Below are positions 29,429 to 64,000 of a DNA stretch of 64,000 nucleotides, one piece after another. The translations under genes and the position numbers were made by a program. The notes under the pieces are model-generated. The model was not told where the DNA came from. It saw only the letters and a program-made list of their open reading frames with translations, and did not search any database. Source of the DNA: a virus. How positions within the stretch are numbered: the first letter of the stretch is position 1; every line of letters begins with the position of its first letter. The stretch spans positions 32,001 to 96,000 of IMG/VR virus record IMGVR_UViG_3300025009_000051; one strand, written 5' to 3'.

Positions 29429-32400
29429 TTACAAAGATTTTTTAACTGTATCTATCTTATGAATAATTTCTTCTTCAGTCAATATATTCTTTTCGTTTAA
29501 TAAATTAGTATTCTTCATTCTTTTAATCATTTCTTTTCTATATTGTTTTTTTCTTTCTACCAATCTTTTATTTGATTTTTCTTTATTTTTATCAAACTGT
29601 TCAAAAGTAGCTTTAATTAATCTTTGTTTTTTAGTATCTAAATCTTCTGCAGTATCTGATTTCTTTAATTTAGATTCTGACCAAGTATCTTCATCAGTTT
29701 TAGTATTAGAAGTTTCTTTAGTAACAGCTGGATCATTACCTTCTTCAGCAATTTGATTATATCTAAACATTCTTTTCAAATCTTCTGGAATATCTTTTTC
29801 TTGCCATTTTTTATAATCGTCTTCTGTCATATTAAATAACTCGGTATAAATCCATTCCATTGGAACTAATCTTGCTTCTATAAAACTCTTAGCTAATTCT
29901 AATTTACTTGTCCATAATTCAACTCTTTCTTGTTCTGCTAATTTAGAAGAAGTAGTTAATTTTAGTTCAAATTGAGTTAATTGTTCATCTGTAAATCCTT
30001 GAGAATATAAGTGTATTAAAGCAAGTTTTGTTAATTCAGTTTCTACTACTCTTTGAACTCGTTCTATTGATCTACTAAATCTAACATCTTCACTCGCGAG
30101 ATTCGATTTCGCATTCATGGATTCTTCGAAAGTTAGGAACGATTTTGGAATCTTTAAACTTGCTAATAAATTATTCATCTCATATTGAATATCTTCTAAT
30201 CCTGTGAATTCCATTCCTGGTAATGTATCAAATTCAGTTCCGCTTTTATCTCCTCGAACGGGTAAAAAGAAATCCTCCAAGCTTGAATTTTTAACAAATA
30301 TACCGTTTCTCGATTCTCCTTCATGAGTAATAGTAGCAAAATTATGATATTCGGCTACCGTCATACAATATACATCTTCTTTTTTTGTTAATAATTCAAT
30401 TTTTTTAATTTTATGATTTATTTTTGATGTAGAAACCTTTTTCATGAATTCATCTACATTTATATATCCTCTTTCTCGAATTGCTCTTTTAATTGTATGC
30501 ATCATAAATTCTTTAGGTTTTTTTCTACCTGCGTTTAATTTCAAATAATATTCATATAATCCATTAATATTATTCATCTCATCACATATTTTTCTTATTG
30601 TCATATTTTCATTTTCTGAAACGATTATCTTAATAGTATTAAATAAATAATCATCAAATTTATCTTTCATTGCATTTGTTACTTTTTCTTTATAATTTTT
30701 ATCTTCCCATCTTCGTTTATTTTCTTGTTTCATAAAATTCCTTTTCTTTAATCTTTCTTCCTTAGACATAGGATTTAATTTTAAAGTTAATTTTATTTTA
30801 TTTTTTATTTCGTTTGCTTTTTCAATTCCAAATACTTCTTCGTAAGATTTTCCCTTTAATTTATTTTCGAATTTTGATTTTTTTCCTTTTTTACTATCGC
30901 TTAATTTTTTTATTGTTTCCTCAGTTCTTATATAGGGTATCATATTTTCTTTCATCCATTTTGAATGTTCCGGTCGTTTTTTATCTTGAAAAGTTGCAAC
31001 CCTACCATTTTTAAATTGTTCAGAAACAACACCAGATATTTTTTCTCCTAATTTTTTTAATCTGATATCTGTTTCTTTAGTCTTGCCTTTGCTCCAAATT
31101 TTTAATTCTCCTGAACTAAACATTTCTTTTAATGTTGCTTTTCTTTTCTCATTAATAATATTTAATTCTTCTTGAGATTTATTATTCCACATCGTATTAT
31201 TTCTATGATATCTAATATGTTCTGAAGATGTCATAGAACAATCTAAATTATCTGGAGAATTGTTTAATTTTTTAAAATCCTTATGATGAACTACATTTTT
31301 GTTTGCATTATACTCATTTAGATTTAAAGCAGATGCAACTAATCTATGAGTATATTCATATTTTTCTGTTTTTGGATTAAAAATTAATTCATAATCTGCA
31401 ATGTTTTTTTGAGTTGATAAAGTAGTATAAAACGGCATTATAGATTCTTCTTCTTTTAAATCTTTAGCCATTTTATAATCTCCATTTCTTAACATTACTG
31501 GATGTGATGGCTCAACATCTAAATAACTACTATCATCTAAAGTTATTCTTATTATATCTGCTTCTTTAATAGTTAATCCGCACCATTCAACTTTTCCGGG
31601 TACAATTTTATTATTATCATTTTTATCTATAGAATATACATAATTTATTTTTCCTTGTTCATATTCTTCTGATAATTCTTTTATTGTTATTTCTCTTCCA
31701 TCTAATAAAGGAATTATTGAATACCATGCAATTGGCATAAGGTTAAATCTCATATTGTATTCACCCGTTTCCGGATCCATATAAGGAACCTTTTTCATAT
31801 TATTTATTACTAAATTCATATGAGCGGCTACTTCATTAGGTGGAATATTTCCTACATCAACTTTAATTACTCTTCTTTCAGGTGCTCTCATTATTCTTGC
31901 TAATAACATTGCATCTTCTAATAAAGTAATTCTTTTCCAAGTTCTTCTACCATTTTCTAAAATACTCTTACCATAAGGAATAAGATTAAAATCAGATAAT
32001 AATCTAAAATGCACTATTTCATAATCTTGAAAAGTTTTAATTTTATATGACGGAGCCATTTGCAAACTTAATGAAGGATCATATTTAAACGAAACATCTC
32101 CATTGTCTCCATCTAATCTTTGTATTGCATAACAAGATAATGGATAAGCATTGGTAATACCAATTTTTTCAGTAATATCTAATTTTAAAAATAAATCTCC
32201 ATATTTTACTAATATTCTAACCCAAGGCCATAAATTAAATTCTATGTTTAATATATCATAAAATAAATTTTCTAATGCATTTTTAATATTTTCATCTTCT
32301 GTATCTATATGAATTATTTCTCCGAACTCGTTCCGAGTTGAGGCCTCATCCGAATATATGTCGAGCGCCGAAGATAGTCTGGCATCTGCATCCATTGCTT

Positions 32401-32647
32401 CATAATCCATATACAAATTCTTTCTGGTAACTTGTATTCCATGCATTAAAATATTATCTGCATAAGAAGATTTCAAAAACCCAGAAGTCGTGTCTGCATT
32501 AACTATGTTTGTATCTAATTTTAATTTTGATTGAATTTTATCAATATCAAAGTTTCTTATCTTTGCATATTCTTGTCCTTTTAATAATATTCCTTTTCTG
32601 AATATTTTTTCTAATCTGTCGAAAAATGTATTGTTTTGTTCTGCCAT
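29429..32647 (-). CDS. portal protein (T4 gp20-like) containing an intein
   Basis: YEAMD..SALDIYSDE, LEDAMLLARIMRAPERRV, EDFFLPVRG..GTEFDTLPG; 589 aa after removing the intein. Confidence 0.95.
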   Translation of the reverse strand: MAEQNNTFFDRLEKIFRKGILLKGQEYAKIRNFDIDKIQSKLKLDTNIVNADTTSGFLKSSYADNILMHGIQVTRKNLYMDYEAMDADARLSSALDIYSDEASTRNEFGEIIHIDTEDENIKNALENLFYDILNIEFNLWPWVRILVKYGDLFLKLDITEKIGITNAYPLSCYAIQRLDGDNGDVSFKYDPSLSLQMAPSYKIKTFQDYEIVHFRLLSDFNLIPYGKSILENGRRTWKRITLLEDAMLLARIMRAPERRVIKVDVGNIPPNEVAAHMNLVINNMKKVPYMDPETGEYNMRFNLMPIAWYSIIPLLDGREITIKELSEEYEQGKINYVYSIDKNDNNKIVPGKVEWCGLTIKEADIIRITLDDSSYLDVEPSHPVMLRNGDYKMAKDLKEEESIMPFYTTLSTQKNIADYELIFNPKTEKYEYTHRLVASALNLNEYNANKNVVHHKDFKKLNNSPDNLDCSMTSSEHIRYHRNNTMWNNKSQEELNIINEKRKATLKEMFSSGELKIWSKGKTKETDIRLKKLGEKISGVVSEQFKNGRVATFQDKKRPEHSKWMKENMIPYIRTEETIKKLSDSKKGKKSKFENKLKGKSYEEVFGIEKANEIKNKIKLTLKLNPMSKEERLKKRNFMKQENKRRWEDKNYKEKVTNAMKDKFDDYLFNTIKIIVSENENMTIRKICDEMNNINGLYEYYLKLNAGRKKPKEFMMHTIKRAIRERGYINVDEFMKKVSTSKINHKIKKIELLTKKEDVYCMTVAEYHNFATITHEGESRNGIFVKNSSLEDFFLPVRGDKSGTEFDTLPGMEFTGLEDIQYEMNNLLASLKIPKSFLTFEESMNAKSNLASEDVRFSRSIERVQRVVETELTKLALIHLYSQGFTDEQLTQFELKLTTSSKLAEQERVELWTSKLELAKSFIEARLVPMEWIYTELFNMTEDDYKKWQEKDIPEDLKRMFRYNQIAEEGNDPAVTKETSNTKTDEDTWSESKLKKSDTAEDLDTKKQRLIKATFEQFDKNKEKSNKRLVERKKQYRKEMIKRMKNTNLLNEKNILTEEEIIHKIDTVKKSL
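30287..31735 (-). mobile_element. 483-aa intein with HNH homing endonuclease and NUMOD-like basic repeats
   Basis: Starts PIAWYSIIPLLDGR, block B EPSHPV, block F DVYCMTV..YHNF, ends FVKN followed by Ser; internal HRLVA...VHHKDF...NN..NL. Confidence 0.9.
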
Positions 32648-51093: not shown

Positions 51094-51227
51094 TGTCTAA
51101 AAAGAGTTTATATACAGGAGATACACAGTTTTTAGGATTTATAAATCAATATAGAGTTTACAATAGACTCTTATCAGCAGCAGAAATATCACAATTGTAT
51201 AATTATCAAAAAAAGAACTACGAATGA
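51093..51227 (+). pseudogene. 44-aa remnant of a LamG-domain gene
   Basis: MSKKSLYTGDTQFLGFINQYRVYNRLLSAAEISQLYNYQKKNYE = LamG C-terminal motif only. Confidence 0.6.
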
Positions 51228-53065
51228 GCAAAATATTTGATATAGATTTTAGAAAGGGCAGCTTGCAAGATAGTGTGAGTAGTGTATTGCCTACTATTAC
51301 CGGAACATTTAATATAGCTCAAAATACCAAAGGTAATTGTTTAAGATATGGGTCAACAAATATGTCATTAAATTATGGTCAGATTGTAAATTATGGTACT
51401 TCTGATTTTACGATTGTTTTATATCTACATACCGAAACGTCTGGAATATTATTTTCAAATGGTTATAATCCGGGATTAGCTTGTTACTATCATTCAGTTA
51501 ATAAAACTCTTTTATTCTACTTAAATTCGGGGGGTGCTACATACACAATACCTAATATTTTGAACAATAAAAATCACTGTGTTTTGTTTAAAAGACAATC
51601 AGACGAATTTTTCTATTCTATAAATGGTGCTTCATTTATATCTTTAGGAACAAGTATAAAAGATTTAACATCTCCAACAGATTTTAAATTGGGGACAAAT
51701 GTTGGATTTACATCAACAAGCATAGGTAATAAAATATATGGATTAAAAATAGAGAGTGTAGCTTATACAGAAAGTCAAAAAAATGAAGCATATGCAGACT
51801 TCCTAAAAGGCAAACCATTAGCAAAACCAAAGTCAAACTTCACATATCCTAAACCTATATCATTAAGTAATGAAACAGGATTGTTGGCTGCTTATAATAT
51901 GAAGATAAGCAATAAGAATCAGATATTGGATATTAGCGGAAATGGTAATCACTTAACAGCATATAACAGTCCAGCTTCAAGAAAAAATGGTGTTTTATTT
52001 AATGGTGTTAATAACTATGCAAGCAAGACAGGATTAAATATAGCTGATTGGACAATAACATTTAGATTTTTATATGTTGGAAATGTCGGGGCAGCATATC
52101 ATTATATTATAGGTATTCAGAGCAGTGTTGGGATATTTGTTGGCGGAAGTATTATTGGATATTGGGGGTTTTATGATGCTTCAACTGTTACATCAGTAAA
52201 TACTCAAATTGCTGGAACATATTATACAATTACCGTGACAAAGGTAGGTACTTTATATAATTTTTATAGAGACGGTGAATATCAAACATCGGCAACAAAA
52301 GTAAGTAGAAGTATAACCGATTTATATGTAGCTAAAAGAGATGCCGGGTATGGCAATACCAATTGCATTATAGAAGATATTAGAATCTACAACCGTGCAT
52401 TATCAATTAATGAAATAAAAGATTATCACAATCAATTTGCTAAGAGAGTTAATTTTAAGGAAGATTTTGATTATGAATTGGGGTTAAGTATTAAACCAAA
52501 AGGGTGGATTAAAGGAACGGGTGGATTCAAAATTGAAGAGTTGACAACAGATGATGCTGTATTGACACATTTGAAGAAAGGTAGTAAGATGCTTACTTGT
52601 ACAACAGCAGGTACTATATCGTTTCCGAGTAAGCAGGCATACGGAATTTGGGAGTTTGATATAAGTAAAACCCAAGGAAACGCTGGAATTGGAATAACAT
52701 TTATAAATAATAAAATTACCAATACTTCCAATAACGGTTATACCATTTATATAAATAGTTCAGAGCAGTTAGATTTTGGTAGATATTCAAGTGGAGTTTT
52801 TACAAGATTAGCTTTATCTACTTCAGCATATTTAGAAGATAATAAAATATATAGAGTAAAAATAACAAGAACTATAGCAGGAGTATTTACAATTTATATT
52901 AAAGGTGGAAATTATGGAAATGTATATCAATTAATGACAGTATCTTCTGGTAATAATCCATCAACCGACAATACGCACACTTCATCAATATATTGTGTTA
53001 TAGCAGGTAGTTATGCAGGAGATAAAATAGGCAGCATCAAATTTACCGAAGGAATTGAGGTTTAA
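51224..53065 (+). CDS. multi-LamG-domain virion protein
   Basis: DISGNGNH, IEDIRIYNRALSINEI motifs; Asn/Thr/Gly-rich. Confidence 0.8.
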   Translation: MSKIFDIDFRKGSLQDSVSSVLPTITGTFNIAQNTKGNCLRYGSTNMSLNYGQIVNYGTSDFTIVLYLHTETSGILFSNGYNPGLACYYHSVNKTLLFYLNSGGATYTIPNILNNKNHCVLFKRQSDEFFYSINGASFISLGTSIKDLTSPTDFKLGTNVGFTSTSIGNKIYGLKIESVAYTESQKNEAYADFLKGKPLAKPKSNFTYPKPISLSNETGLLAAYNMKISNKNQILDISGNGNHLTAYNSPASRKNGVLFNGVNNYASKTGLNIADWTITFRFLYVGNVGAAYHYIIGIQSSVGIFVGGSIIGYWGFYDASTVTSVNTQIAGTYYTITVTKVGTLYNFYRDGEYQTSATKVSRSITDLYVAKRDAGYGNTNCIIEDIRIYNRALSINEIKDYHNQFAKRVNFKEDFDYELGLSIKPKGWIKGTGGFKIEELTTDDAVLTHLKKGSKMLTCTTAGTISFPSKQAYGIWEFDISKTQGNAGIGITFINNKITNTSNNGYTIYINSSEQLDFGRYSSGVFTRLALSTSAYLEDNKIYRVKITRTIAGVFTIYIKGGNYGNVYQLMTVSSGNNPSTDNTHTSSIYCVIAGSYAGDKIGSIKFTEGIEV

Positions 53066-53084: not shown

Positions 53085-53522
53085 ATGAAACATTTAAAAA
53101 AATTAATTTTTATGATAGTTGCAATATTACTATCAACGGTATTATTCCCAATCGGATTAATAACCAATCTAATTCAAATATATAGAGTAGGGCATTTCTT
53201 TACTTATCTATGGAAATTCCTTGTAGAACTCTATAAATTAGTAATGGACTTCTTCTTATGGGTAGCTCTATTCTTTGATAGACTTGGAAATGTAGTCATT
53301 GGAAATATAATGTTATTCAACTATGTTAGAAAAGAATATAGAGATAAAACATTATTCAATCAATCTGAAATTACAATCTCTTGTTCTTTAGGACATTGTT
53401 TAGAAAACAATTATTTAAGTGAAAGCGGAATAAGATTTGTAATGGTAATAGATTTTATATTAGGAAAGAATCATTGTAAAGATGCATATGAATGGCAAAA
53501 GAATATAGATCTGAAAAGATGA
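53085..53522 (+). CDS. membrane protein (possible holin-like)
   Basis: N-terminal TM helices; DRLGNV...ITISCSLG...HC motif; end of tail operon. Confidence 0.5.
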   Translation: MKHLKKLIFMIVAILLSTVLFPIGLITNLIQIYRVGHFFTYLWKFLVELYKLVMDFFLWVALFFDRLGNVVIGNIMLFNYVRKEYRDKTLFNQSEITISCSLGHCLENNYLSESGIRFVMVIDFILGKNHCKDAYEWQKNIDLKR

Positions 53523-54073
53523 AATATACAATTTACAAGACGATAAATTTAATTAATAACAAAATTTATATTGGTATGCATTTCACTGAAGATATAAATG
53601 ATGATTATTTAGGATCTGGAAAACATTTACAAAGAGCAATTAATAGATGTGGGAGAGAGAATTTCAAGAAAGAAGTGTTATTTATTTTTGATAATGAACA
53701 AGAAATGATCGAAAAAGAAATTGAACTGGTTAATGAAGATTTTATTAAACGAAACGACACATATAATTTGAAGATTGGTGGATTAGGTGGCGGAGGGAAA
53801 CATTCAGATAAATCAAAAAGAAAAATGAGTAAATCTCCTAAAGGTAAAATATTTTCAGATGAAACTAAACGGAAAATCAGTGAAGCTAATAAAGGTAAAA
53901 AATTATCAGATAAAACCAAAAGAAAAATGAGTAAATCAGCTAAAAATAGACCTCCAGTTTCAGATGAAACTAAAAGAAAAATAAGTTCAACAGAAAAAGG
54001 TAAAATAGTTTCAGATGAAACAAGGCAGAAAATGAGAGAAGCTTGGAAAATCAGAAAAATTAAATCTATATAA
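53519..54073 (+). CDS. GIY-YIG homing endonuclease with NUMOD3 repeats
   Basis: TIYKTINLINNKIYIGMH...YLGSG; repeated SDETKRKIS; start ATG 53519. Confidence 0.9.
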   Translation: MKYTIYKTINLINNKIYIGMHFTEDINDDYLGSGKHLQRAINRCGRENFKKEVLFIFDNEQEMIEKEIELVNEDFIKRNDTYNLKIGGLGGGGKHSDKSKRKMSKSPKGKIFSDETKRKISEANKGKKLSDKTKRKMSKSAKNRPPVSDETKRKISSTEKGKIVSDETRQKMREAWKIRKIKSI

Positions 54074-54328: not shown

Positions 54329-54964
54329 ATGCAAAATGATCCAATTATAAACATTCTAACAAGAACTGCAAGTAGACCAAATTATTTTAGACATTGCAGA
54401 GAAAGCATTTTAAATCAAACCTATTGTAATACTAATCATATATTAGGAATTGATGATATTAAAAGTTTAGATTATATTGATGAATATTATTATTCAAATG
54501 ATAATATTGTAAGATTAGACAGACAAACAAAACAAAATATAAATCACGCTCCTTATAATTTGTATCTTAATACCATGTTAAGAATTGTAAAAGATGGATG
54601 GGTGATTATATTAGATGACGATGATAAATTTATGAAAAATGATGCTTTAGAAATTCTTGTTCCATATATGAATAATGAAAGAAATTTATTATTGTGGAAA
54701 GTACAATTTCCTGGTTATACTATTCCTGGAGCCGCTTATTTTGGAATGAGACCAGTTAGTTGCAACATCAGTATGATTGGATTTTGTTTTCATATTAGTC
54801 AATTAAACAATACAAAATTTAATGATGCTCAAACCGGAGATTTCACATTTATAAATGAACTATATAATAAATTAAATCCTGTTTGGATTAATGACATTTT
54901 AACAGGATTGCAAAGAACAAATTCTGCAGGTGGATTTGGAAGTTTAATAGATTTACAAGAATAA
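54329..54964 (+). CDS. glycosyltransferase family 2
   Basis: ILTRTASRP...IILDDDD...GDF. Confidence 0.8.
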   Translation: MQNDPIINILTRTASRPNYFRHCRESILNQTYCNTNHILGIDDIKSLDYIDEYYYSNDNIVRLDRQTKQNINHAPYNLYLNTMLRIVKDGWVIILDDDDKFMKNDALEILVPYMNNERNLLLWKVQFPGYTIPGAAYFGMRPVSCNISMIGFCFHISQLNNTKFNDAQTGDFTFINELYNKLNPVWINDILTGLQRTNSAGGFGSLIDLQE

Positions 54965-54977
54965 AAAAATATTTGTT

Positions 54978-55586
54978 ATGTCGATAAATGAAATACCAAA
55001 ATTTTGTATAAATTTAGAAGAGAGAAAAGATAGATGGAATTCTTTTCTTATTCAAAAAGATAACTATCCATTTTTATCTAATACAGAAAGATTTAATGCA
55101 ATAAAGCATGCAAGAGGAGCAGAAGGATGCAAATTGTCATATTTAACTTTGTTTGATCATTGCATTCAAAATAATATCAACGAAGTATTAATTTTAGAAG
55201 ATGATGTTTTATTTTTAAATGATGTAGAAAATACATTACAATTGGCAATAAACCAACTTCCAGAAAATTGGGATTTATTATATCTTGGTTTAAATACACA
55301 TAAAAAATTAGATAGATATTCTGATAATTTATTTAAAGTTAAAAGTTCTTTTGCGACCCATGCTATATTATATAATAATAGAAATAATGTAATGAATTAT
55401 ATAATAGAAAAAAAAGATTCTTGCCCAGTTATAGATGTATTTTATTCTAATGAAATTCAACCTAAATTTCAATGTTTTACCGTCTATCCAATTATAGCCA
55501 CTCAAAATAATTCTTATTCTGATATAGAAAAAAAAGTTATAAATATGAATTTTATTGTTGATCGATTTTATACCAATACACGATGA
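54978..55586 (+). CDS. glycosyltransferase family 25
   Basis: CINLEERKDRW, GCKLS, LILEDDV, THAILY. Confidence 0.85.
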   Translation: MSINEIPKFCINLEERKDRWNSFLIQKDNYPFLSNTERFNAIKHARGAEGCKLSYLTLFDHCIQNNINEVLILEDDVLFLNDVENTLQLAINQLPENWDLLYLGLNTHKKLDRYSDNLFKVKSSFATHAILYNNRNNVMNYIIEKKDSCPVIDVFYSNEIQPKFQCFTVYPIIATQNNSYSDIEKKVINMNFIVDRFYTNTR

Positions 55587-56365
55587 TAGGATGTAATTTA
55601 AAAGGCGGATTATGCAATATGATGTTTCAAATTGCAACATTAGAATATATTTCTAAAAATTACAATATACCTATAACCTACCCAAACACAGATATTAATT
55701 TAAGAGATATTTCAAATGCGTATGGAAACAATGCAATTGAATACAAAAATATGTTTAAGAATTTTCATTGGAACAATGTTTACATGCAAAATCAAAGAAC
55801 AAAACAATTCCCATTTGAATATTCAGAAGAAATAAAAATACCAATCGAGGATATATTTTATGATGGATTTTTTCAATCAGAAAAATATTTTAATTGTGAT
55901 AAAAATTTTGTATATAATCTGTTTGAACCTGCAGATTTCATAAAAGAAAAATTAAATAGTTTTAAAAAATTATTTAAAGATAAAACAACTTGTTCAATTC
56001 ATGTAAGAAGAGGAGATTATTTAAAATATCCAGATATTCATAATACCCAACCAATAGAATATTATTTAAAAGGAATGAATATAATACCAGTTGACAAATA
56101 CATTATATTCAGTGATGATATTAATTGGTGCAAAAATTATTTTATAGGAGAACAATTTGTGTTCATAGAAAATGAAAAAGATTATGTAGAATTATTTTTA
56201 ATGTCTGTTTGTAATCACAATATTATTTCAAATAGTTCTTTCGGATGGTGGGGAGCATATTTAAATCAAAACATAGAAAAAAAGGTGATAGGACCAATAA
56301 AATGGTTCGAAAACAATACTTATAATAATAAAGATATAATTCCAGAAGCATGGATTCAAATTTAA
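55583..56365 (+). CDS. glycosyltransferase family 11 (alpha-1,2-fucosyltransferase-like)
   Basis: GGLCNMMFQ, SIHVRRGDY, FSDDINWC, IISNSSFGWWGAYL. Confidence 0.9.
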   Translation: MIGCNLKGGLCNMMFQIATLEYISKNYNIPITYPNTDINLRDISNAYGNNAIEYKNMFKNFHWNNVYMQNQRTKQFPFEYSEEIKIPIEDIFYDGFFQSEKYFNCDKNFVYNLFEPADFIKEKLNSFKKLFKDKTTCSIHVRRGDYLKYPDIHNTQPIEYYLKGMNIIPVDKYIIFSDDINWCKNYFIGEQFVFIENEKDYVELFLMSVCNHNIISNSSFGWWGAYLNQNIEKKVIGPIKWFENNTYNNKDIIPEAWIQI

Positions 56366-57237
56366 ATATAATACAATTAACAAAATCTAATTCTTTTGAT
56401 TATGATGATATATTTAAGAATTCTTATAATCTAATAAAAAAAAGAAATAAATTAGATTTAAATGTAATAATTCCAGTTCGTGGAAGAAAAGAATTTTTAA
56501 AACCGTTGCTGCATTATTTTATAGAAGCTAAAAAAAATACTTCAAAAAAAATATCATTCACAGTAGTTGAAGATTCACCAGGAAAAGAACATGAAGAAAC
56601 TTGTAAGGAATTTAAGGTAAATTATATTTGGTTAAAATCTAATAAAATATTTAATAAATGTTTAGCACATAATATTGGAGTTTTATTTTCATCTAAATCT
56701 AAATATTTAATGTTTCATGATTTAGATTGTTTGGTACAAAAAGATTTTTTTATAAATGTATTTGAAAATATAAAACAAAAAGAATTGATTGCAATACAAT
56801 GTTTTAATAAAAGAAGAGTATTATATTGCAATGAAAAATTGACTAATTCATTAATAGAATTAAAAACAAATATAAACGATGTCAATATTAATCATCCAGA
56901 TATAAATTTATTTGAAAATGGCAAAGCTCCTGGAGGATCGATTTTATTAAATCGAGAAACATTTTTTAATATTGGAGGATATGATCCAGAATTATTTAAT
57001 GGGTATTCTCCAGAAGATTCTTTCTTCTGGGAAAAGATTGAGACCCTAACCAAAATTGGCAGCTGTGATTCTCCAATTGTAGAAATATTTCATATGCATC
57101 ACCCCCCTTCATATTTTAGAAAGGATGAGGCATTAACTAAAATGCATAAAATAGATAGATTGTATAGAATATCAAAAATGGAAAATAAATTAGAAATTTT
57201 AAAATATAAATCAGATTTAATTAAAAAATATGAATAA
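56350..57237 (+). CDS. GT-A fold glycosyltransferase (GT2/GT7-like)
   Basis: VIIPVRGR, FNKCLAHNIG, FHDLDCL, GGYD...GYSPED. Confidence 0.8.
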   Translation: MDSNLNIIQLTKSNSFDYDDIFKNSYNLIKKRNKLDLNVIIPVRGRKEFLKPLLHYFIEAKKNTSKKISFTVVEDSPGKEHEETCKEFKVNYIWLKSNKIFNKCLAHNIGVLFSSKSKYLMFHDLDCLVQKDFFINVFENIKQKELIAIQCFNKRRVLYCNEKLTNSLIELKTNINDVNINHPDINLFENGKAPGGSILLNRETFFNIGGYDPELFNGYSPEDSFFWEKIETLTKIGSCDSPIVEIFHMHHPPSYFRKDEALTKMHKIDRLYRISKMENKLEILKYKSDLIKKYE

Positions 57238-57847
57238 ATATTTTGATAAAGCATATTGTATTAATTTAAATAAAAGAATTGATAGATGGAACAAAGCTCA
57301 GCAAGAATTTAACAAATATAATTTAGTTGTTGAAAGATTTCCTGCAATTGAAGGAAATATTCAAAATTTAGAAACTGAAATACTACCTGGAAATATAGGA
57401 TGCGTAAACAGTCATTTAAATATAATAAAAAATGCTAGAAAAAATAATTATAAAAGTGTAGCTGTTTTTGAAGATGATGTCGAATTTAAAGAAGATGTTT
57501 TAGAAAAATTTGAAGAATATTATAAACAACTTCCAGAAAATTGGGATATGATTTATTTTGGGGGCAATCACAATGATAGAGAAGGAGAGAATACATTAAT
57601 TAAAATATCGGATAATATTTATAAAGTGACTAAAACTTATACCACGCATGCTTATATTATTAAAAACACCGTGTATGATGAGGTAATAAAATTATTTTCT
57701 AAATATGAACATGAAGTAGATGTATTATATTCTGAATTGCAATTGAAATTTAATTGTTATGTTTTCAGACCTCATTTGGCGTGGCAAAGAGCAGACTTTA
57801 GTGATATAATGAATACATATGCAGATTATACTTCAATATTAAAATAA
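57230..57847 (+). CDS. glycosyltransferase family 25
   Basis: CINLNKRIDRW, GCVNSH, VFEDDV, TTHAYII. Confidence 0.85.
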   Translation: MNKYFDKAYCINLNKRIDRWNKAQQEFNKYNLVVERFPAIEGNIQNLETEILPGNIGCVNSHLNIIKNARKNNYKSVAVFEDDVEFKEDVLEKFEEYYKQLPENWDMIYFGGNHNDREGENTLIKISDNIYKVTKTYTTHAYIIKNTVYDEVIKLFSKYEHEVDVLYSELQLKFNCYVFRPHLAWQRADFSDIMNTYADYTSILK

Positions 57848-57854
57848 ATATATT

Positions 57855-58457
57855 ATGGATTTAATTCAATTAGAAAAATGGAAAGAAGATAATGGAGACC
57901 AAACTCATAGAATTCAATATGATCTAAATGAATTGTCTACTATAATTGATGTCGGAGGATATAAAGGAGAATGGACCAAATTAATGAGTTCTATTTATAA
58001 GTGCAACATATATACATTTGAGCCAGTTAAAAAGTTCTACGATGAAATGATAATTAATTTATACATGCATGAAAAAATTCATACTTTTAATTTTGGATTT
58101 TCACCTAAAACAGAATATAAAACAATTTATTTAGATGATGATTCTACGTCGTTGTTTGCTCCTTCAAGATATATAAATATTATTCAATTAATAGAATTTA
58201 AAGAATTCTTTATATCTAAGAATTTTCAAACAATAGATTTAATGAAAATTAACATTGAAGGAGAAGAATTTGATTTAATGGATCATATCATAGAAAATAA
58301 TTTACATTTAAAGATAAAAAACTTTCAAATTCAATTTCATGACTGGATGCCGCATGCCGAATATAGAAGACAACAAATATTAGATAAATTATTATTGACT
58401 CATTATCCTACATATCAATATAAATTTGTTTGGGAAAATTATAAATTAAAAGAATAA
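57855..58457 (+). CDS. FkbM-family methyltransferase
   Basis: IDVGGYKG, FEPV, LMKINIEGEEF. Confidence 0.85.
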   Translation: MDLIQLEKWKEDNGDQTHRIQYDLNELSTIIDVGGYKGEWTKLMSSIYKCNIYTFEPVKKFYDEMIINLYMHEKIHTFNFGFSPKTEYKTIYLDDDSTSLFAPSRYINIIQLIEFKEFFISKNFQTIDLMKINIEGEEFDLMDHIIENNLHLKIKNFQIQFHDWMPHAEYRRQQILDKLLLTHYPTYQYKFVWENYKLKE

Positions 58458-58461
58458 AAAA

Positions 58462-58878
58462 ATGGAAAAAATATATTCGAAGATAGAACCAAATAAATTA
58501 CTTCATATAATTTTTAGAAAAGAAGATTTTAAAAGTGGTAGAACAAATTTAATAGATGAAATGGAATTTATTCAATGTTCAGCCTTAAATTTGGTTATTG
58601 GAACAACCTTTAAGCCTCACAAACATATTGAAAGAAATATAACTTTCTCAAATCATATAGCACAAGAAAGTTGGTGTATAATACAAGGTTCAGTGAAATG
58701 TATTTTCTATGATTTAAATGATGAAATTTTAGAAACTCCAATATTAAATGCAGGAGATACATCATTTACGCTTCGCGGCGGCCATACCTATGAAATTTTG
58801 GAAGACGATACGTTAGTCATGGAATATAAAGTAGGGCCTTATTTCGGTCAACAATTAGATAAAATATTTATACAATAA
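58462..58878 (+). CDS. cupin-fold sugar-modifying protein (WbuC-like)
   Basis: PHKH...QE...G...LNAGD...GH...EYKVGPY. Confidence 0.7.
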   Translation: MEKIYSKIEPNKLLHIIFRKEDFKSGRTNLIDEMEFIQCSALNLVIGTTFKPHKHIERNITFSNHIAQESWCIIQGSVKCIFYDLNDEILETPILNAGDTSFTLRGGHTYEILEDDTLVMEYKVGPYFGQQLDKIFIQ

Positions 58879-58881
58879 ACA

Positions 58882-59178
58882 ATGAAAGAAAAAATATTAG
58901 AATATATTAAAGAAAAATATGGAAATCCAATTACAAAAGTACATCAATCACATTGTATGTTTCCAGGTGAAGATTGCTCTTGTCGAAATGTAGAAGAAAT
59001 TACATATGATACCTCTTTAATTCATGGTGGATATGTAGATTCATTAAGTATGGTGCATGTATTAATAATGATTGAAACTCTTTTTAATATTGAAATTCCT
59101 GTAAAAGAATCAATACCAGAAAATTTTGATACTGTAAATAAGATGGTAGAATTGATAAATAGAATAAAAAATGGATAA
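58882..59178 (+). CDS. acyl carrier protein with His/Cys-rich insertion
   Basis: GYVDSLSMV phosphopantetheine site; IE..FNIEIP...ENF.TV. Confidence 0.85.
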   Translation: MKEKILEYIKEKYGNPITKVHQSHCMFPGEDCSCRNVEEITYDTSLIHGGYVDSLSMVHVLIMIETLFNIEIPVKESIPENFDTVNKMVELINRIKNG

Positions 59179-60034
59179 ATTAAAAATAGTTATATATTCT
59201 ACATGCCAAGGCAGGGGGTTAGAAACATTTTTAATGCTCCATAAAAAATTTGTTAGTCAATATACGTTTGTGCAAACAATTTTAAATTATTCTTTTTTAC
59301 ATGAAAAAAAAATAATAATAGAAAATAATGTAATGCTTAATAATATAAAAAATGCTGATATTTTTATATATCAACCATTAGATGATATTTATGGTAAAAA
59401 TGCTACAAATTATGTAAAAACATTTTTAAAAGAAACTTGCATTGCAATATCTATACCTTATGTTTATAACACAAGTTTTTGGCCTCTAATAGTTGGAATA
59501 AAAGGAGACACGACAGACGATTGGTCTGCATTAGATAATTACAAGCATGTAATTGAAAACACTGATATATTAGATAATTTAATAAAACTTGGGCATTCTA
59601 AAGATACTATTTTAAATCTATATGATAATAATGAAATAAATTTTAATTATGATATTAGACATAGAGTTAATATGAATATTTTGAAAAATAAAGAAGAAAC
59701 GATAGATATAAAAATGCATGATTTTATTAATGATAATTTAAAAACAAAAAGATTATTTTTATATCATAGTCATCCTACTTCTTCTGTCTTTATTCATATG
59801 GCAAATCAAATTTTAAATATTCTTAATTTAGAACCTTTAGAAGAACATTCTAATATTGATTTAACAAATTTACAATCTGGAACTGTAATGCCAGGTATTT
59901 CTCCCGCTTTAATGGCATTCCCAAGCTCAGCTATTAGACATTTCGGTTTTGAATTTGAAACTCCACAATATGAAGCAATAGCAAATAATTTCTTTAGACA
60001 TACAATATTGACATATTTAAATAATAAAAGATGA
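59171..60034 (+). CDS. WcbI-like polysaccharide biosynthesis protein
   Basis: IYSTCQ, ADIFIYQPL, ISIPY.Y..FWP, LF....HPT. Confidence 0.7.
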   Translation: MDKLKIVIYSTCQGRGLETFLMLHKKFVSQYTFVQTILNYSFLHEKKIIIENNVMLNNIKNADIFIYQPLDDIYGKNATNYVKTFLKETCIAISIPYVYNTSFWPLIVGIKGDTTDDWSALDNYKHVIENTDILDNLIKLGHSKDTILNLYDNNEINFNYDIRHRVNMNILKNKEETIDIKMHDFINDNLKTKRLFLYHSHPTSSVFIHMANQILNILNLEPLEEHSNIDLTNLQSGTVMPGISPALMAFPSSAIRHFGFEFETPQYEAIANNFFRHTILTYLNNKR

Positions 60035-60960
60035 ATTATACAAAAATAATAGGAACTGGTATTTGCCTACCAGAAGTTTATATAACTAATGACGATTTAA
60101 TAAATAAGTTTAAATTAGATACAACCAATGAATGGATTGTAGAAAATACTAATATTCGACAAAGATATATTTGTAAAGATGGAGAAACATCTACTTCTTT
60201 AGGTTGCACTGCCGTAAAACAAGCTATAGAAAATGCAAATTTAAAAAATGAAGATATTGATATGTTAATTGTAGCCACAACTTCTCCAGATAAAGTTTCT
60301 CCTTCTACAGCCTGTTTAATAAAAGATGAATTAAAATTAGAAAAGGCAATTGCATTTGATATTGCCGCAGTTTGTAGTGGATTTTTATTTGGTATGTCTG
60401 TCGCAGAAAAATATATATCTTCTGGAATGTGTAAAAATATAGTGGTTGTAGGTGTAGATAGGTTTTCAAAGATAACAGATTGGAATCATAAACATAGTAT
60501 CTTTTTTGGAGATGGAGCTGGAGCCGCAGTTTTATCACAATCTAAAACGAAGGGATTTCATGGTTTTACTTTATATTCTGAGAGTGAAAATAAAATTGGA
60601 TTTGAATGTGAATTTAATGAAACATATAAAATGAATACAAAGATGGTTTATGAAGCAGCAATCAAAACAATGCCAATTGCAATCGAAGATGTATTAAATA
60701 ATGAAAATATGAGTATCGATGATATAGATTATTTAATACCTCATCAACCAAGTATTAGAATATTAAAAGAAGTAGCAAAAAGAATAAATATGCCAGAAGA
60801 AAAAGTAATGATGAATATGGATAAATATGCTAATACAGTTTCTGGAACAATTCCTATTCTATTACATGAAACTTGGAGTAAATTAAAACCGGGAGACAAA
60901 ATATTATTTGCTGCTATTGGTTCGGGTTGGACTTATGGTGCGGCTTTATATGAATTTTAA
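60031..60960 (+). CDS. fabH: 3-oxoacyl-ACP synthase III
   Basis: Catalytic C-H-N: AVCSGF, PHQPS, YANT; FGDGAGA. Confidence 0.9.
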   Translation: MNYTKIIGTGICLPEVYITNDDLINKFKLDTTNEWIVENTNIRQRYICKDGETSTSLGCTAVKQAIENANLKNEDIDMLIVATTSPDKVSPSTACLIKDELKLEKAIAFDIAAVCSGFLFGMSVAEKYISSGMCKNIVVVGVDRFSKITDWNHKHSIFFGDGAGAAVLSQSKTKGFHGFTLYSESENKIGFECEFNETYKMNTKMVYEAAIKTMPIAIEDVLNNENMSIDDIDYLIPHQPSIRILKEVAKRINMPEEKVMMNMDKYANTVSGTIPILLHETWSKLKPGDKILFAAIGSGWTYGAALYEF

Positions 60961-60971
60961 ATAAATTTATT

Positions 60972-61496
60972 ATGAATTTTAAATCAATTGGAGAAGATGT
61001 AAGAATTGATCCAACAGCACAAATAACACGACCAGAATTGATAGAAATTGGTAATCATGTTTCCATTGATATGTGCGTTTATTTTTCTACAGGAGCAAAG
61101 ATAGGAGATTACATTCATATAGCCCCACAAGTCAGTATTATCGGTGGCGCAAAGTCGCGATTAATTATGGAAAATTTTAGTGCTATTGCAACCGGTTCAA
61201 GAATTATATGTGCAAGTGATGATTTCACTCAAGGTTTTCTTTGTCCATTTATTCCTATAGAATTTAGAAATGTAATTAATAAACCAATTACATTTAAAAA
61301 ATATTCTGCATTGGGAGTAAATTCAGTGGTAATGCCAGGAGTAACTCTTGCAGAAGGATCTGTTGTAGGTGCAAATTCAGTCTTAACTCAAGATACAGAA
61401 CCTTGGATGATTTATGTTGGTTCTCCTGCAAGGGCGATTAAAATGAGAGATTCAAAATTAATTTTAGAAGGAGCCAAAAAATTAGGATATGATTGA
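60972..61496 (+). CDS. hexapeptide-repeat (LbH) sugar acyltransferase
   Basis: Repeated I/V-G-x-x-x-x-I; PWMIYVGSPA. Confidence 0.85.
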   Translation: MNFKSIGEDVRIDPTAQITRPELIEIGNHVSIDMCVYFSTGAKIGDYIHIAPQVSIIGGAKSRLIMENFSAIATGSRIICASDDFTQGFLCPFIPIEFRNVINKPITFKKYSALGVNSVVMPGVTLAEGSVVGANSVLTQDTEPWMIYVGSPARAIKMRDSKLILEGAKKLGYD

Positions 61497-62265
61497 ATTA
61501 TTTAATACTTGGGGGCCAACCTATTTTTTAGAATATAATAAAGATGTAAATGTATTTGTAGATACTATTGGAAAGGTAGAATCAAATAAAAAAAATATCT
61601 TTGTTATTCTTGAACCATTTAACAAATTTTTTATTGATAAAATTAATAAAAATGATTTTGATTTTATTCTTACATATTTCCAAGAAATAATTGATTCTAT
61701 TCCAAATGCAAGATTATTTAATCCATCAAATACTTGGGTGCATCATTATACTTTTCCAACAAAAGAATTTTCAGTTTCTACATTGGTAGGAGGAAAAAAT
61801 ATTCATAATTTATCTGGATATGCTAAACGACACGAGTTGTGGAATAGGCAAAATGAAATAATAATTCCAAAGAAATTTTATTTGAGTAGTGCCAGTAAAT
61901 TGAATAATATTAATTATAGTAATCAGTTAGTATTATACAAATATAAAGAACCGCTATTTGATAGTCAATTTCACATAGTGATAGAAAACGAAACGATGTT
62001 AAATATGTGGTCAGAAAAAATTATAGATTGCTTTCAAACTAAAACTATACCGATATATGTTGGGTGTAAAAATATTGAAAATTTCTTTAATATTGATGGA
62101 ATAATAAAGGTAGAATCCGTTTCAGATATCATTTTAGCGTGTAATGAATTAACGCCGACTTTTTATAAATCTAAAGAAAAAGCATTGAAAGAAAATTTAA
62201 AAATATCAAATAATTATTTGAGTTTTGACAAACAATTAATAAATAAATTAAACGAAATTTTATGA
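61489..62265 (+). CDS. glycosyltransferase family 10-like
   Basis: QFHIVIEN...SEKIIDCF..KTIPIY.G. Confidence 0.75.
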   Translation: MIELFNTWGPTYFLEYNKDVNVFVDTIGKVESNKKNIFVILEPFNKFFIDKINKNDFDFILTYFQEIIDSIPNARLFNPSNTWVHHYTFPTKEFSVSTLVGGKNIHNLSGYAKRHELWNRQNEIIIPKKFYLSSASKLNNINYSNQLVLYKYKEPLFDSQFHIVIENETMLNMWSEKIIDCFQTKTIPIYVGCKNIENFFNIDGIIKVESVSDIILACNELTPTFYKSKEKALKENLKISNNYLSFDKQLINKLNEIL

Positions 62266-63329
62266 GCAGAATAGTACAATACTCACCAGTAATAGAAAAA
62301 AAATATATTCGTTCTGTCACCAAACAATTAAAAAGTGGTTGGCTTGGACCTGGAGAAACAACTAAAAAAGTAGAAGAAGAGCTATGTAAAATGACAGGAA
62401 ATAAATATTGTGTTGCAACCACCTCTGGAACCTCCGCATTAATAATGGCTATTCTATCTTTAAATATTCCTAAAGACAAAATAATTTTATTACCTGCATA
62501 TACTTTTATAGCTCCGCACAATGCAGCTAAATTTCTTGGATATAAAATTAGATTGATAGATGTCGATCCAAATACAATGTGCATGGATTATGGTGAATTA
62601 TTAAAGATATATTCTAAACATAAAAATAGCATTGGAGCAATTATTTTTGTAAATCATAATTCATATGCAGAAGGAGAATATTCAAAAATAGTAGATTTTT
62701 GTAACCGATATTCTACTCCCATAATTTCAGATGCATCTCAAGCATTGGGAAATATAAAAGCATTTAAAGGAACGGTTTCAGTAATTAGTTTTTCAGTGCC
62801 AAAAATAGCTACCTGTGGACAAGGCGGTGCAGTAGTAACAAATGATGAAAACATATATTTAGAATTAAAGAAAATACAAGATCATGGAGACGATTGGAGG
62901 AAAGATAGAATACATAAAAATTTAGGTGTTAATTTTAAATTTAATGATATATTAGCATCATATCTTTTACCACAATTAAAAGATATAAATAAATTGATAT
63001 TTAAAAGAGATATGATATTCTCTTGGTATCAAATATATTTGAAAAAAAATATAGTTACATATGGCATGGATTCAACTTGGATGGTTATTTATAAAACTAA
63101 AAAAATCCAACAGATTATAAAAGAATTAGAAGAAAATAACATACAATCCGTTCAATACTATAAACCTATTTCTTGGAATCCTCCATATTATACATCAGAG
63201 TTATTTGTTAATTCTGAAAAAATATATCAAGAATATTTATATTTACCAAGTAGTTTATCATTGACAAAAAATCAAATAAAAAGAATTTGTAGAATAATTT
63301 TAAAAATAGAAAATGGACAAAAAAATTAA
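62262..63329 (+). CDS. DegT/DnrJ PLP-dependent sugar aminotransferase (perosamine synthase-like)
   Basis: TTSGTSAL, DASQALG, SFSVPKIATCGQGG. Confidence 0.9.
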   Translation: MSRIVQYSPVIEKKYIRSVTKQLKSGWLGPGETTKKVEEELCKMTGNKYCVATTSGTSALIMAILSLNIPKDKIILLPAYTFIAPHNAAKFLGYKIRLIDVDPNTMCMDYGELLKIYSKHKNSIGAIIFVNHNSYAEGEYSKIVDFCNRYSTPIISDASQALGNIKAFKGTVSVISFSVPKIATCGQGGAVVTNDENIYLELKKIQDHGDDWRKDRIHKNLGVNFKFNDILASYLLPQLKDINKLIFKRDMIFSWYQIYLKKNIVTYGMDSTWMVIYKTKKIQQIIKELEENNIQSVQYYKPISWNPPYYTSELFVNSEKIYQEYLYLPSSLSLTKNQIKRICRIILKIENGQKN

Positions 63330-64000
63330 AAGTCTTATCATAGGAATATCTGGACAAGATGGAAGTTATCTTTCAGAATATTTATTATCTCTCGATCATG
63401 AAGTGTATGGTATTGTTAGACGGCATTCAGTTGCAGAAAACCAACAATATAGATTAGAAAATATAAAAGAAAATATTCATGTGTTTTATGGAGATTTATT
63501 AGATATTTCTTCTATAGAAAAGGTATTGAGAGAAGTAATGCCAGATTTCATATTTAATTTGGGGGCAATGAGCCATGTGAAAATATCATTTGAAATACCA
63601 TTATTTACTGCGCAGACAAATGCTCTTGGAGTTTTAAGTCTGTTGGAATCTTATAGAACTATTTGCCCAAATGCTAAATTTTACCAAGCTTCAAGTAGCG
63701 AGATGTTCGGATTATCTGTAGATGAAGATATGTATCAAAGAGAAACAACTCCAATGAATCCAACTTCACCTTATGGTATTTCAAAAGTTTTTGCATATAA
63801 TATGGTAAGACATTATCGTAGAGCATATGGATTACATGCAGTAAATGGTATATTGTTTAATCATGAAAGTCCAAGAAGAGGAAGTAATTTTGTGACCAGT
63901 AAAATTATTAAAGGAGCATGTATGATAAAACTCGGAATGCAACCAAATTTAGAATTAGGAAATTTAGATTCATTTCGTGATTGGGGGCATTCATATGACT
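63313..64000 (+). CDS. gmd: GDP-mannose 4,6-dehydratase (runs off the window end)
   Basis: Hand translation: IIGISGQDGSYL, GAMSHV, YQASSSEMFG, SPYG.SK, GILFNHESPRRG, RDWGH. Confidence 0.95.
   Translation, partial: MDKKIKSLIIGISGQDGSYLSEYLLSLDHEVYGIVRRHSVAENQQYRLENIKENIHVFYGDLLDISSIEKVLREVMPDFIFNLGAMSHVKISFEIPLFTAQTNALGVLSLLESYRTICPNAKFYQASSSEMFGLSVDEDMYQRETTPMNPTSPYGISKVFAYNMVRHYRRAYGLHAVNGILFNHESPRRGSNFVTSKIIKGACMIKLGMQPNLELGNLDSFRDWGHSYD

Follow-up and report, generated by a model that had tools for sequence, protein, structure and literature searches.

The window analyzed here, 64,000 bp in length, comprises bases 32001-96000 of a 183,716-bp, 79% complete viral record from IMG/VR, and at 58882-61496 it carries four adjoining genes which encode an acyl carrier protein (ACP; 58882..59178, 98 aa), a WcbI-family protein (59171..60034, 287 aa), a beta-ketoacyl synthase III (KAS III) of the FabH type (60031..60960, 309 aa), and a left-handed beta-helix (LbH) acyltransferase resembling the sugar N-acyltransferase AntD (60972..61496, 174 aa). 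All four are located on the plus strand with spacings of -8, -4 and +11 nt; the open reading frames (ORFs) listed in the first-pass annotation were recovered at exactly these coordinates, and every family assignment made there holds. They are part of an unbroken plus-strand row of 14 genes extending from 54329 to approximately 64296 with gaps of -17 to +13 nt, in which five glycosyltransferases, an FkbM methyltransferase and a WbuC-like cupin precede the ACP gene, and a GT10-like glycosyltransferase, a DegT aminotransferase and a Gmd-like dehydratase follow the LbH gene.

An alignment-based search of metagenome contigs for relatives of the LbH protein retrieved at least 445 of them. Of these the best 80 were examined; the distinct loci inspected number 72, and neighboring genes were counted at the 30 distinct metagenome loci where LbH is flanked by 3 kb or more on each side. 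A DegT-like gene is present within 6 kb of LbH at all 30 loci and Gmd at 24; within 3 kb, FabH is found at 22 loci, a FabG-like short-chain dehydrogenase/reductase (SDR) at 14, and the WbuC-like cupin, the most constant neighbor at this distance, at 25. WcbI occurs within 6 kb at a single locus and ACP at none. The common cassette consists of GT11, the WbuC-like cupin, in some cases FkbM (located between cupin and FabH, as in the window, in 13 of the 30 cassettes), FabH, in some cases the SDR, which resembles FabG and acetoacetyl-CoA reductase, LbH, often a dioxygenase of the PhyH family, a short DegT, and Gmd. Gene orders vary between FabH-SDR-LbH, FabH-LbH and LbH-FabH-SDR, the last being found in a 214-kb phage. 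The proposal that ACP, WcbI, FabH and LbH form one dedicated module is thus not borne out by these loci, as both ACP and WcbI are missing from nearly all cassettes and each has other partners elsewhere. Among the phages sampled, only this one has an ACP within the cassette beside WcbI.

The LbH protein (Hexapep, E 1.8e-14) has its best PDB matches in the AntD structures 3vbi to 3vbp (E 1.7e-28, residues 2-164 against residues 31-193 of the chain; next best match 2e-10), a similarity that takes in the extended loop, and it is about 34-38% identical to AntD. Structure 3vbn is AntD, the N-acyltransferase of anthrose synthesis, which binds coenzyme A (CoA) and a dTDP-sugar (PMC6031040), and the anthrose pathway uses 3-hydroxy-3-methylbutyryl-CoA (PMC8141488). 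Asp83-Asp84 of the window protein correspond to a conserved Asp-Asp pair at the position mutated in deposited AntD variants. In bacterial relatives, encoded on replicons of a plasmid collection, LbH always adjoins DegT (in Ilyobacter, with the order LbH-DegT-RfbA-RfbB, in Azospirillum and in Bacillus thuringiensis); the ant-like operon of B. thuringiensis comprises enoyl-CoA hydratase, glycosyltransferase, aminotransferase and acyltransferase. In the window, DegT is located one gene downstream of LbH, in agreement with the earlier observation that the LbH gene precedes that of an amino-sugar synthase. Since AntD is the closest solved relative and DegT adjacency is so regular, with a gene for donor supply alongside in the anthrose-type operon, members of this LbH family probably N-acylate amino sugars, and the assignment of the window protein as a putative amino-sugar N-acyltransferase of the AntD kind rather than a plain O-acetyltransferase is supported. 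An N-acetyltransferase of the PerB/PglD/NeuD type was considered and rejected (TIGR03570, 57.1 against 160.8 bits; the match covers only the hexapeptide residues 103-154, and the N-terminal domain is missing).

The likeness to the antABCD operon of Bacillus anthracis and Bacillus cereus includes the AntD-type LbH, the adjoining DegT and a gene for supply of the acyl donor, and the substrate of AntD is a 4-amino-4,6-dideoxy sugar nucleotide, to whose amine it attaches a short 3-hydroxy acyl group. In contrast to the window, however, the donor in antABCD is provided by an enoyl-CoA hydratase acting on a CoA ester of leucine catabolism and not by a ketosynthase, the sugar is dTDP-linked rather than GDP-linked, ACP, WcbI and cupin are absent, and the product is part of a bacterial spore glycoprotein and not of a phage. 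From the synteny with FabH and SDR we infer that the window LbH would use a 3-hydroxy-acyl thioester instead of acetyl-CoA.

The KAS III protein contains both the N-terminal and the C-terminal ACP_syn_III domain (Pfam, E 2.6e-24 and 1.3e-30), scores over its full length above the curated cut-offs of NF006829 (326.9 bits, cut-off 249) and TIGR00747 (293.4 bits, cut-off 292.1), and matches Aquifex FabH (PDB 2ebd) at E 3e-71. Its Cys-His-Asn triad, already described as intact, was confirmed by alignment with E. coli FabH and 2ebd (Cys112-His244-Asn274 in E. coli numbering) and is invariant across 43 related viral and metagenome FabHs. The CoA-primer residue Trp32 is retained. The position of E. 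coli Phe87, which we take to limit the size of the primer pocket, is occupied by Ser in the window protein and in 40 of the 43 cassette FabHs; Arg249, presumably the residue with which E. coli FabH docks ACP, is kept in the window protein and its clade and is Asn in 36 of the 43. In the FabH tree, the window protein belongs to a 10-member clade (SH-aLRT 99) which groups with FabH of the Flavobacteriia type (17 rows, support 97), whereas most cassette FabHs fall into another clade of 31 members (support 99); among named relatives, FabHs of Flavobacteriia come closest to the window protein, with about 50% identity. Judging from these clades, LbH has kept a FabH neighbor across at least two well-separated FabH lineages, which speaks most strongly for a role of FabH in sugar acylation and makes one in bulk fatty-acid synthesis unlikely. 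The window protein shares with the housekeeping FabH of type II fatty-acid synthesis the full-length match over the NCBIfam cut-offs, the triad, Trp32 and Arg249, but it is encoded in a glycan island beside an N-acyltransferase, FabD, FabG, FabZ or FabF-type genes do not accompany it, and Phe87 is replaced by Ser. The earlier interpretation is thus partly supported, and FabH and LbH are best read as a conserved sugar-acylation pair, with a dedicated supply of short 3-oxo or 3-hydroxy acyl groups for N-acylation, that is not involved in bulk lipid synthesis. Of the earlier suggestion that FabH and ACP make a short beta-keto or hydroxy acyl group for the amino sugar, the part concerning FabH gains from its link with LbH, while the part concerning ACP finds no counterpart at the 30 loci.

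If the assumed roles of the E. coli residues hold, the presence of Arg249 in one clade and Asn in the other leads to the idea of two donors, in which the main FabH clade may use CoA thioesters and the clade of the window protein a carrier protein. The acetoacetyl-CoA synthase NphT7 uses malonyl-CoA, and by analogy it is a possibility that cassette FabHs lacking Arg249 do the same. Scans of viral contigs with single FabH and WcbI sequences gave no matches, and alignment queries were needed. The matches obtained with FabH in reference phages (tblastn) came largely from short records without annotation, whose names refer to hosts or faecal samples, and were uninformative; none of these records is among the LbH matches.

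With moderate confidence, we regard the stretch as a variant of a widespread viral cassette which would make an N-acylated 6-deoxy amino sugar for the glycan assembled by the neighboring glycosyltransferases. As judged from its family, the Gmd-like 4,6-dehydratase (63313..64296, plus strand; the window ends at 64000) would convert host GDP-mannose to GDP-4-keto-6-deoxymannose; it scores 351.8 bits with the gmd model TIGR01472, below the cut-off of 415, and 115.3 bits with the dTDP-glucose dehydratase model. The WbuC-like cupin metalloprotein (58462..58878, plus strand; TIGR04366, 37.2 bits, under the cut-off of 42) may epimerize or isomerize the keto sugar, as faint structural resemblances suggest, and the DegT/DnrJ/EryC1 aminotransferase (62262..63329, plus strand; PF01041, E 2.2e-59) is expected from its family to add the amino group. 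The AntD-like LbH would then acylate this amine, which its closest solved relative and the constant adjacency of DegT make probable. The FabH-(SDR)-LbH synteny points to a short 3-oxo or 3-hydroxy acyl group and not acetyl, most simply acetoacetyl or 3-hydroxybutyryl, which KAS III would build by extending an acyl-CoA primer with a malonyl thioester and which the FabG-like reductase would reduce where it is present.

The sugar had been described as perosamine-type, which is reasonable but unproven, because DegT fits C3 and C4 enzymes alike and a conserved cupin gene stands ahead of the pathway. The PDB matches of DegT are spread evenly across C4 and C3 aminotransferases (E 1e-27 to 1e-21, with perosamine synthases at E 2.7e-25 to 2.1e-24); with the DegT of a WbuC-LbH-DegT-Gmd cassette in the huge phage LR756511 it shares 47% identity. 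In the cupin, His53, His55, Gln68, Glu69 and His108 are invariant, and its structure model (pLDDT, the predicted local distance difference test score, 91) matches WbcA (Z 8.1), the isomerase domain of FdtD (Z 8.1) and RmlC (Z 7.1), tied with generic cupins; the fold searches are weak altogether (Foldseek E at least 0.016; VIA Z at most 8.7). The cupin may be an epimerase or isomerase of 4-keto sugars, and an epimer of perosamine or a 3-amino isomer is possible. An alternative that we rate as somewhat unlikely builds on this: the cupin would be a 3,4-ketoisomerase or 3-epimerase, and LbH would N-acylate a 3-amino-3,6-dideoxyhexose or an epimer of perosamine. The constancy of the cupin next to LbH speaks for it, since a perosamine route needs no such enzyme, as do the even-handed matches of DegT and the full-length matches of the cupin model to the GDP-4-keto-6-deoxymannose 3-epimerase WbcA and to 3,4-ketoisomerases (Z 6.8-8.1). 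However, these Z values are no higher than those for unrelated cupins, the cupin has no sequence match to the FdtA or RmlC families, and its invariant His/His/Glu/His set suggests a metal site, whereas enzymes of the FdtA/RmlC type are not known to contain a metal; moreover, in the case of AntD, to which LbH is most closely related among solved proteins, the amine that is acylated is at C4.

Two features of the related cassettes should be mentioned with respect to these genes. Most cassettes contain beside Gmd a 'mini' DegT of about 197 aa (L050:8515-9114, L048:12335-12928, L068:9414-10013, L013:6321-7016), which keeps the Asp that binds pyridoxal phosphate and the Schiff-base Lys and is missing about 40 residues at the N terminus, an internal segment and the entire C-terminal domain; unlike these, the DegT of the window is full-length. 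In many cassettes an Fe/2-oxoglutarate dioxygenase of the PhyH family is encoded between LbH and the short DegT (L068:8515-9417, L083:8521-9435), whose target for hydroxylation could be either the sugar or the acyl chain; the window has no such gene.

The ACP scores 21.5 bits with PF00550, marginally over the gathering threshold of 20.8, and matches several ACP and DltC models of NCBIfam at E 1e-9 to 1e-6. The DSL serine attributed to it is present in the motif GGYVDSLS, with Asp53-Ser54 invariant in 9 homologs, 7 of which have a His/Cys-rich insertion of the pattern H-x-S-x-C-x-F-P-x3-C-x-C after helix I. The AlphaFold2 model (pLDDT 72) has the four-helix fold of carrier proteins, places Ser54 just ahead of helix II (57-68) and shows the insertion at low confidence; the 50 best Foldseek matches of this model are all carrier proteins (target-normalized template modeling (TM) scores of 0.53-0.79, most around 0.7), and the AcpP-type proteins among them match with a root-mean-square deviation of about 2.8 A and a target-normalized TM score of about 0.7. 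The isoelectric point is 5.3, compared with 4.05 for E. coli AcpP, and helix II reads DSLSMVHVLIMIE as against DSLDTVELVMALEEE in E. coli AcpP, so that the strongly acidic helix II is absent. The protein is a mildly acidic carrier protein of an unusual subfamily but not a typical AcpP of fatty-acid synthesis.

Members of this ACP subfamily are 54-62% identical to one another; its profile retrieves 2693 proteins at E up to 0.001, and most of the best 150 listed are 60-130 aa long, as is typical of carrier proteins. A library of 1.8 billion representatives also contains fused forms, namely an SGNH-like domain with ACP (P0156), ACP with DUF1919 (P0155), and ACP with an uncharacterized domain (P0228) that is the same as the uncharacterized neighbor of ACP in the huge phage LR756502 (L054, 642 kb). 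When all ORFs of the approximately 145 fetched loci were searched with a profile, members of the ACP family turned up at just three of these loci (L051, L052 and L054), in which FabH is undetectable by tblastn. The family adjoins the same SGNH-like and uncharacterized proteins in three phages: a complete 374-kb phage has the gene order GT-SGNH-ACP-GT25-sulfotransferase-GT11, L051 has ACP after heptose-pathway-like genes and ahead of the same SGNH-like protein, and in LR756502 ACP is one gene away from an epimerase-LbH fusion. The latter is a single ORF of 483 aa (L054:8065-9516) in which an NAD-dependent epimerase/dehydratase domain is fused to an AntD-like LbH. In the SGNH-like partner (L052:7417-8001; L051:8312-8953), the nucleophile position reads GDS in two members and GDC in L051. 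Sulfotransferase genes are found in related phage glycan islands (L013:2149-3030, L052:8850-9833), and one of the encoded proteins is fused to a peptidoglycan-binding domain. Given these fusions and neighbors, the ACP family is repeatedly coupled to putative glycan-modifying enzymes. Teichoic acid D-alanylation by DltC and DltD offers an analogy, as the phage ACP family matches DltC models and is fused or adjacent to SGNH-like proteins, which suggests carrier-dependent glycan acylation. In contrast to the Dlt system, there are no equivalents of DltA and DltB, and the neighbor of ACP in the window is WcbI, without detectable relation to the SGNH partners. We considered WcbI as a thiol version of the SGNH partner and dropped the idea, since profile-profile comparisons with the SGNH-like protein, the DUF1919 fusion and the P0228 domain all gave probabilities below 1%.

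The WcbI protein of the window scores 77.6 bits with PF18588 (cut-off 29.2; E 1.4e-21) and matches PDB 4bqn at E 2.2e-5; its gene overlaps that of ACP by 8 nt. Cys12, Tyr97 and His201 align with Cys14, Tyr97 and His201 of the Burkholderia pseudomallei protein, and the equivalent of Arg167 is uncertain; among 17 homologs, neither the Cys nor the His varies, and the Tyr is almost always kept. In B. pseudomallei WcbI, Cys14 and His201 flank the thiol/acetyl group of CoA and Tyr97 contacts its pantothenate part (PMC4104973), so the binding of CoA by WcbI proteins invoked in the first-pass annotation is documented for the solved relative, whose site is kept here. This putative O-acetyltransferase is inactive alone and was proposed to need a partner; it acts in the setting of a GDP-linked 6-deoxy-manno-heptose which is 2-O-acetylated. 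Relatives of the window WcbI were found at 34 viral loci, including giant-virus bins, and at 10 bacterial loci, usually near Gmd or fucosyltransferase-family (GT11 or GT10) genes and rarely near FabH or LbH, which fits the GDP-6-deoxy-manno-heptose setting of B. pseudomallei. The window protein thus has in common with the capsule WcbI (4BQN/4BQO) the Pfam family, the Cys14/His201/Tyr97 site and an association with clusters for GDP-linked 6-deoxy-manno-type sugars; it differs in being only about 25% identical and in its translational coupling to an ACP gene.

In the phage studied here there is no reductase, and ACP and WcbI are inserted between cupin and FabH instead. For the cassette in this form, we assume that FabH acts with a carrier protein, given its Arg249 and its closeness to the FabHs of Flavobacteriia, and it would be the only enzyme of the island able to load ACP. 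ACP and WcbI would form a pair of carrier and transferase, in which WcbI moves the acyl group from the ACP arm most likely to a sugar hydroxyl, as modeled on the O-acetylation proposed for B. pseudomallei WcbI. A more general form of this idea is that ACP is the missing partner of WcbI-type proteins, such that carrier-dependent glycan O-acylation would exist beside the widespread FabH-driven N-acylation of GDP-amino sugars. The ACP, with its possibly zinc-binding insertion, would hand the acyl group borne by its pantetheine arm to WcbI at the Cys-His site, and in other phages to the fused SGNH or DUF1919 domains. The coupling of ACP to putative glycan-modifying enzymes elsewhere makes the overlapping WcbI its putative partner by analogy, and such a partner would fit the published proposal for WcbI; we nevertheless consider this generalization doubtful.

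Several observations weigh against the reading of the stretch as outlined above. ACP was not found near WcbI relatives at any of the 44 loci, nor WcbI near ACP relatives, and because the two are never near each other at the other fetched loci their pairing depends on a single genome. The non-acidic helix II of ACP fits poorly with docking on an Arg249-type FabH. About 90 FabH/LbH cassettes do without a phage ACP, as does a complete 340-kb relative (L012), which encodes FabH (with Asn249), SDR, LbH and WcbI and in which a scan of the complete genome found no ACP; ACP is thus unnecessary for the N-acyl route. An ORF of 87 aa following FabH in L012 was considered as an ACP and ruled out. With 76% identity between the window LbH and that of FabH-SDR-LbH cassettes, the type of donor is probably the same here as in a cassette lacking ACP. 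The missing SDR needs no special explanation, since at least 8 cassettes also lack it. Finally, the acyl group, its carrier and its acceptor are all things that we infer, and 108 kb of the 292-kb contig lie outside the searched record.

An alternative closer to the model of the first-pass annotation is a single assembly line, in which FabH would build the acyl group on ACP, WcbI would act as a transacylase between ACP and CoA, whether to load malonyl or to pass the product on to CoA, and LbH would transfer the same acyl group, such that four genes serve one N-acyl group. The four genes are indeed contiguous and overlapping, FabH is ACP-dependent by family and keeps Arg249, the Cys-His pair with which WcbI binds CoA or pantetheine would suit a covalent acyl intermediate, and LR756502 has an ACP of the same family one gene from an LbH relative. 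We consider this model unlikely, however, as WcbI and ACP are each missing from nearly all FabH-LbH cassettes and never occur near each other at the other fetched loci, two loci (L140 and L141) combine an FabH of the Arg249 clade with LbH and SDR but have no phage ACP or WcbI nearby, and L012 has WcbI together with an Asn249 FabH in a complete genome lacking ACP. That LbH is instead an ordinary acetyl-CoA-dependent N- or O-acetyltransferase, with FabH and ACP as auxiliary fatty-acid genes located in the island by chance, is very improbable: LbH does match the WcaF and WbbJ O-acetyltransferase models weakly (59.7 and 50.3 bits, far under the cut-offs), and both the minimal WbuC-LbH-DegT-Gmd cassettes (LR756511) and L013 are without FabH, so that the acyl donor of some members of the LbH family must be drawn from the metabolic pool, but FabH stands close to LbH at most loci, in several gene orders and from separate clades, the other fatty-acid synthesis genes are missing alongside it, and the reference-phage records with FabH do not recur among those with LbH.

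Preferring the cassette reading, we expect the phage to depend on its host for several functions. Searches of the 183,716-bp record found no phosphopantetheinyl transferase (PPTase; PF01648), SDR (PF13561/PF00106), FabD (PF00698) or AMP-ligase (PF00501). It had been pointed out that the window contains neither PPTase nor ketoreductase and that host enzymes may be borrowed, and a search for PPTase and FabG in the rest of the genome had been proposed; neither was found in the record, and PPTase is also missing from the complete 340-kb relative and from the complete 374-kb ACP-bearing relative. As a rule, these phages therefore appear to borrow the PPTase of their host. For malonyl loading and any reductive step, either the host or the 108 kb outside the record must provide the enzymes; in the proposed mechanism, the host would supply them together with PPTase.

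With respect to the genomic setting, the proteins of the window were found again on a 292,100-bp contig. The window has a GC content of about 25% and encodes a large terminase and a portal protein; the terminase is closest to those of Flavobacterium phage vB_FspM_immuto (47% identity) and Microcystis phage Mel-JY01 (45%). Shine-Dalgarno-like motifs are absent at all 13 gene starts examined (54329-64000), where the upstream sequence is A/T-rich. The lack of such motifs, the terminase resembling that of a Flavobacterium phage and the Flavobacteriia-like FabH make a host among the Bacteroidota plausible. The head of the gene row is formed by five glycosyltransferase genes (GT2, GT25, GT11, GT2 and GT25 according to Pfam; 54329..57847, plus strand, gaps of -16 to +13 nt), followed by the FkbM-family methyltransferase (57855..58457, plus strand; PF05050, and TIGR01444 with 45.7 bits). 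The GT10-like glycosyltransferase of the fucosyltransferase family (61489..62265, plus strand) matches PF00852 weakly (E 0.004), and its homologs in related cassettes score higher, for example at E 3e-7 in L013. A megablast of the region against reference phages gave zero matches, and scans for promoters, terminators and motifs remained at chance level in this AT-rich DNA. Elsewhere in the window, the portal ORF (29429-32647, minus strand, 1072 aa) has matches to HNH endonucleases in the middle of the protein (approximately residues 404-657), which suggests that it holds an intein or an inserted homing endonuclease. A gene for a NUMOD3/GIY-YIG-like homing endonuclease (53492-54073) is located between a Laminin_G_3 tail-fiber-like gene (51224-53065) and the glycan island, and a gene for a tRNA nucleotidyltransferase resembling CCA-adding enzymes is found at 13470-14780.

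The wbe/rfb cluster of Vibrio cholerae O1 shares with the window a route to a GDP-4-amino-4,6-dideoxyhexose by way of Gmd and an aminotransferase. Genes for an ACP (RfbK) and an LbH-type transferase (RfbO) are likewise part of this cluster. In contrast to the window, its acyl group is thought to be built via the AMP-ligase-like WbeL and reductases, with no FabH, and the record studied here has no such ligase. Bacteria are well known to make 6-deoxy amino sugars that are N-acylated with C4 hydroxy-acyl groups, such as the 3-hydroxybutanoyl-viosamine of E. coli O49, and in V. cholerae O1 the perosamine amine carries a C4 hydroxy-acyl group (tetronate) derived from dedicated genes of the same cluster (PMC3441752, PMC6562859). 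What sets the present case apart is that the donor comes from a KAS III, in some cassettes accompanied by a FabG-like reductase, that the setting is viral and that the cassette is abundant. FabH- or ACP-linked N-acylation of sugars, or a phage FabH together with perosamine genes, was not found described in the searchable literature, which is limited.

The FabH-LbH pair, which occurs commonly in viral and metagenome DNA from aquatic sources, would represent a fatty-acid ketosynthase recruited to the tailoring of sugars. The ACP is in addition a candidate partner for WcbI, a capsule protein which is required for virulence of B. pseudomallei and for whose family no activity has so far been demonstrated. 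N-acyl groups on perosamine-type sugars decide the recognition of surface glycans; cells of V. cholerae O1 that lose nothing but the tetronate side chain become resistant to phage ICP1 (PMC3441752). A phage-borne route to an unusual N-acylated 6-deoxy amino sugar could thus mask the virion or remodel the surface of the infected cell against other phages.

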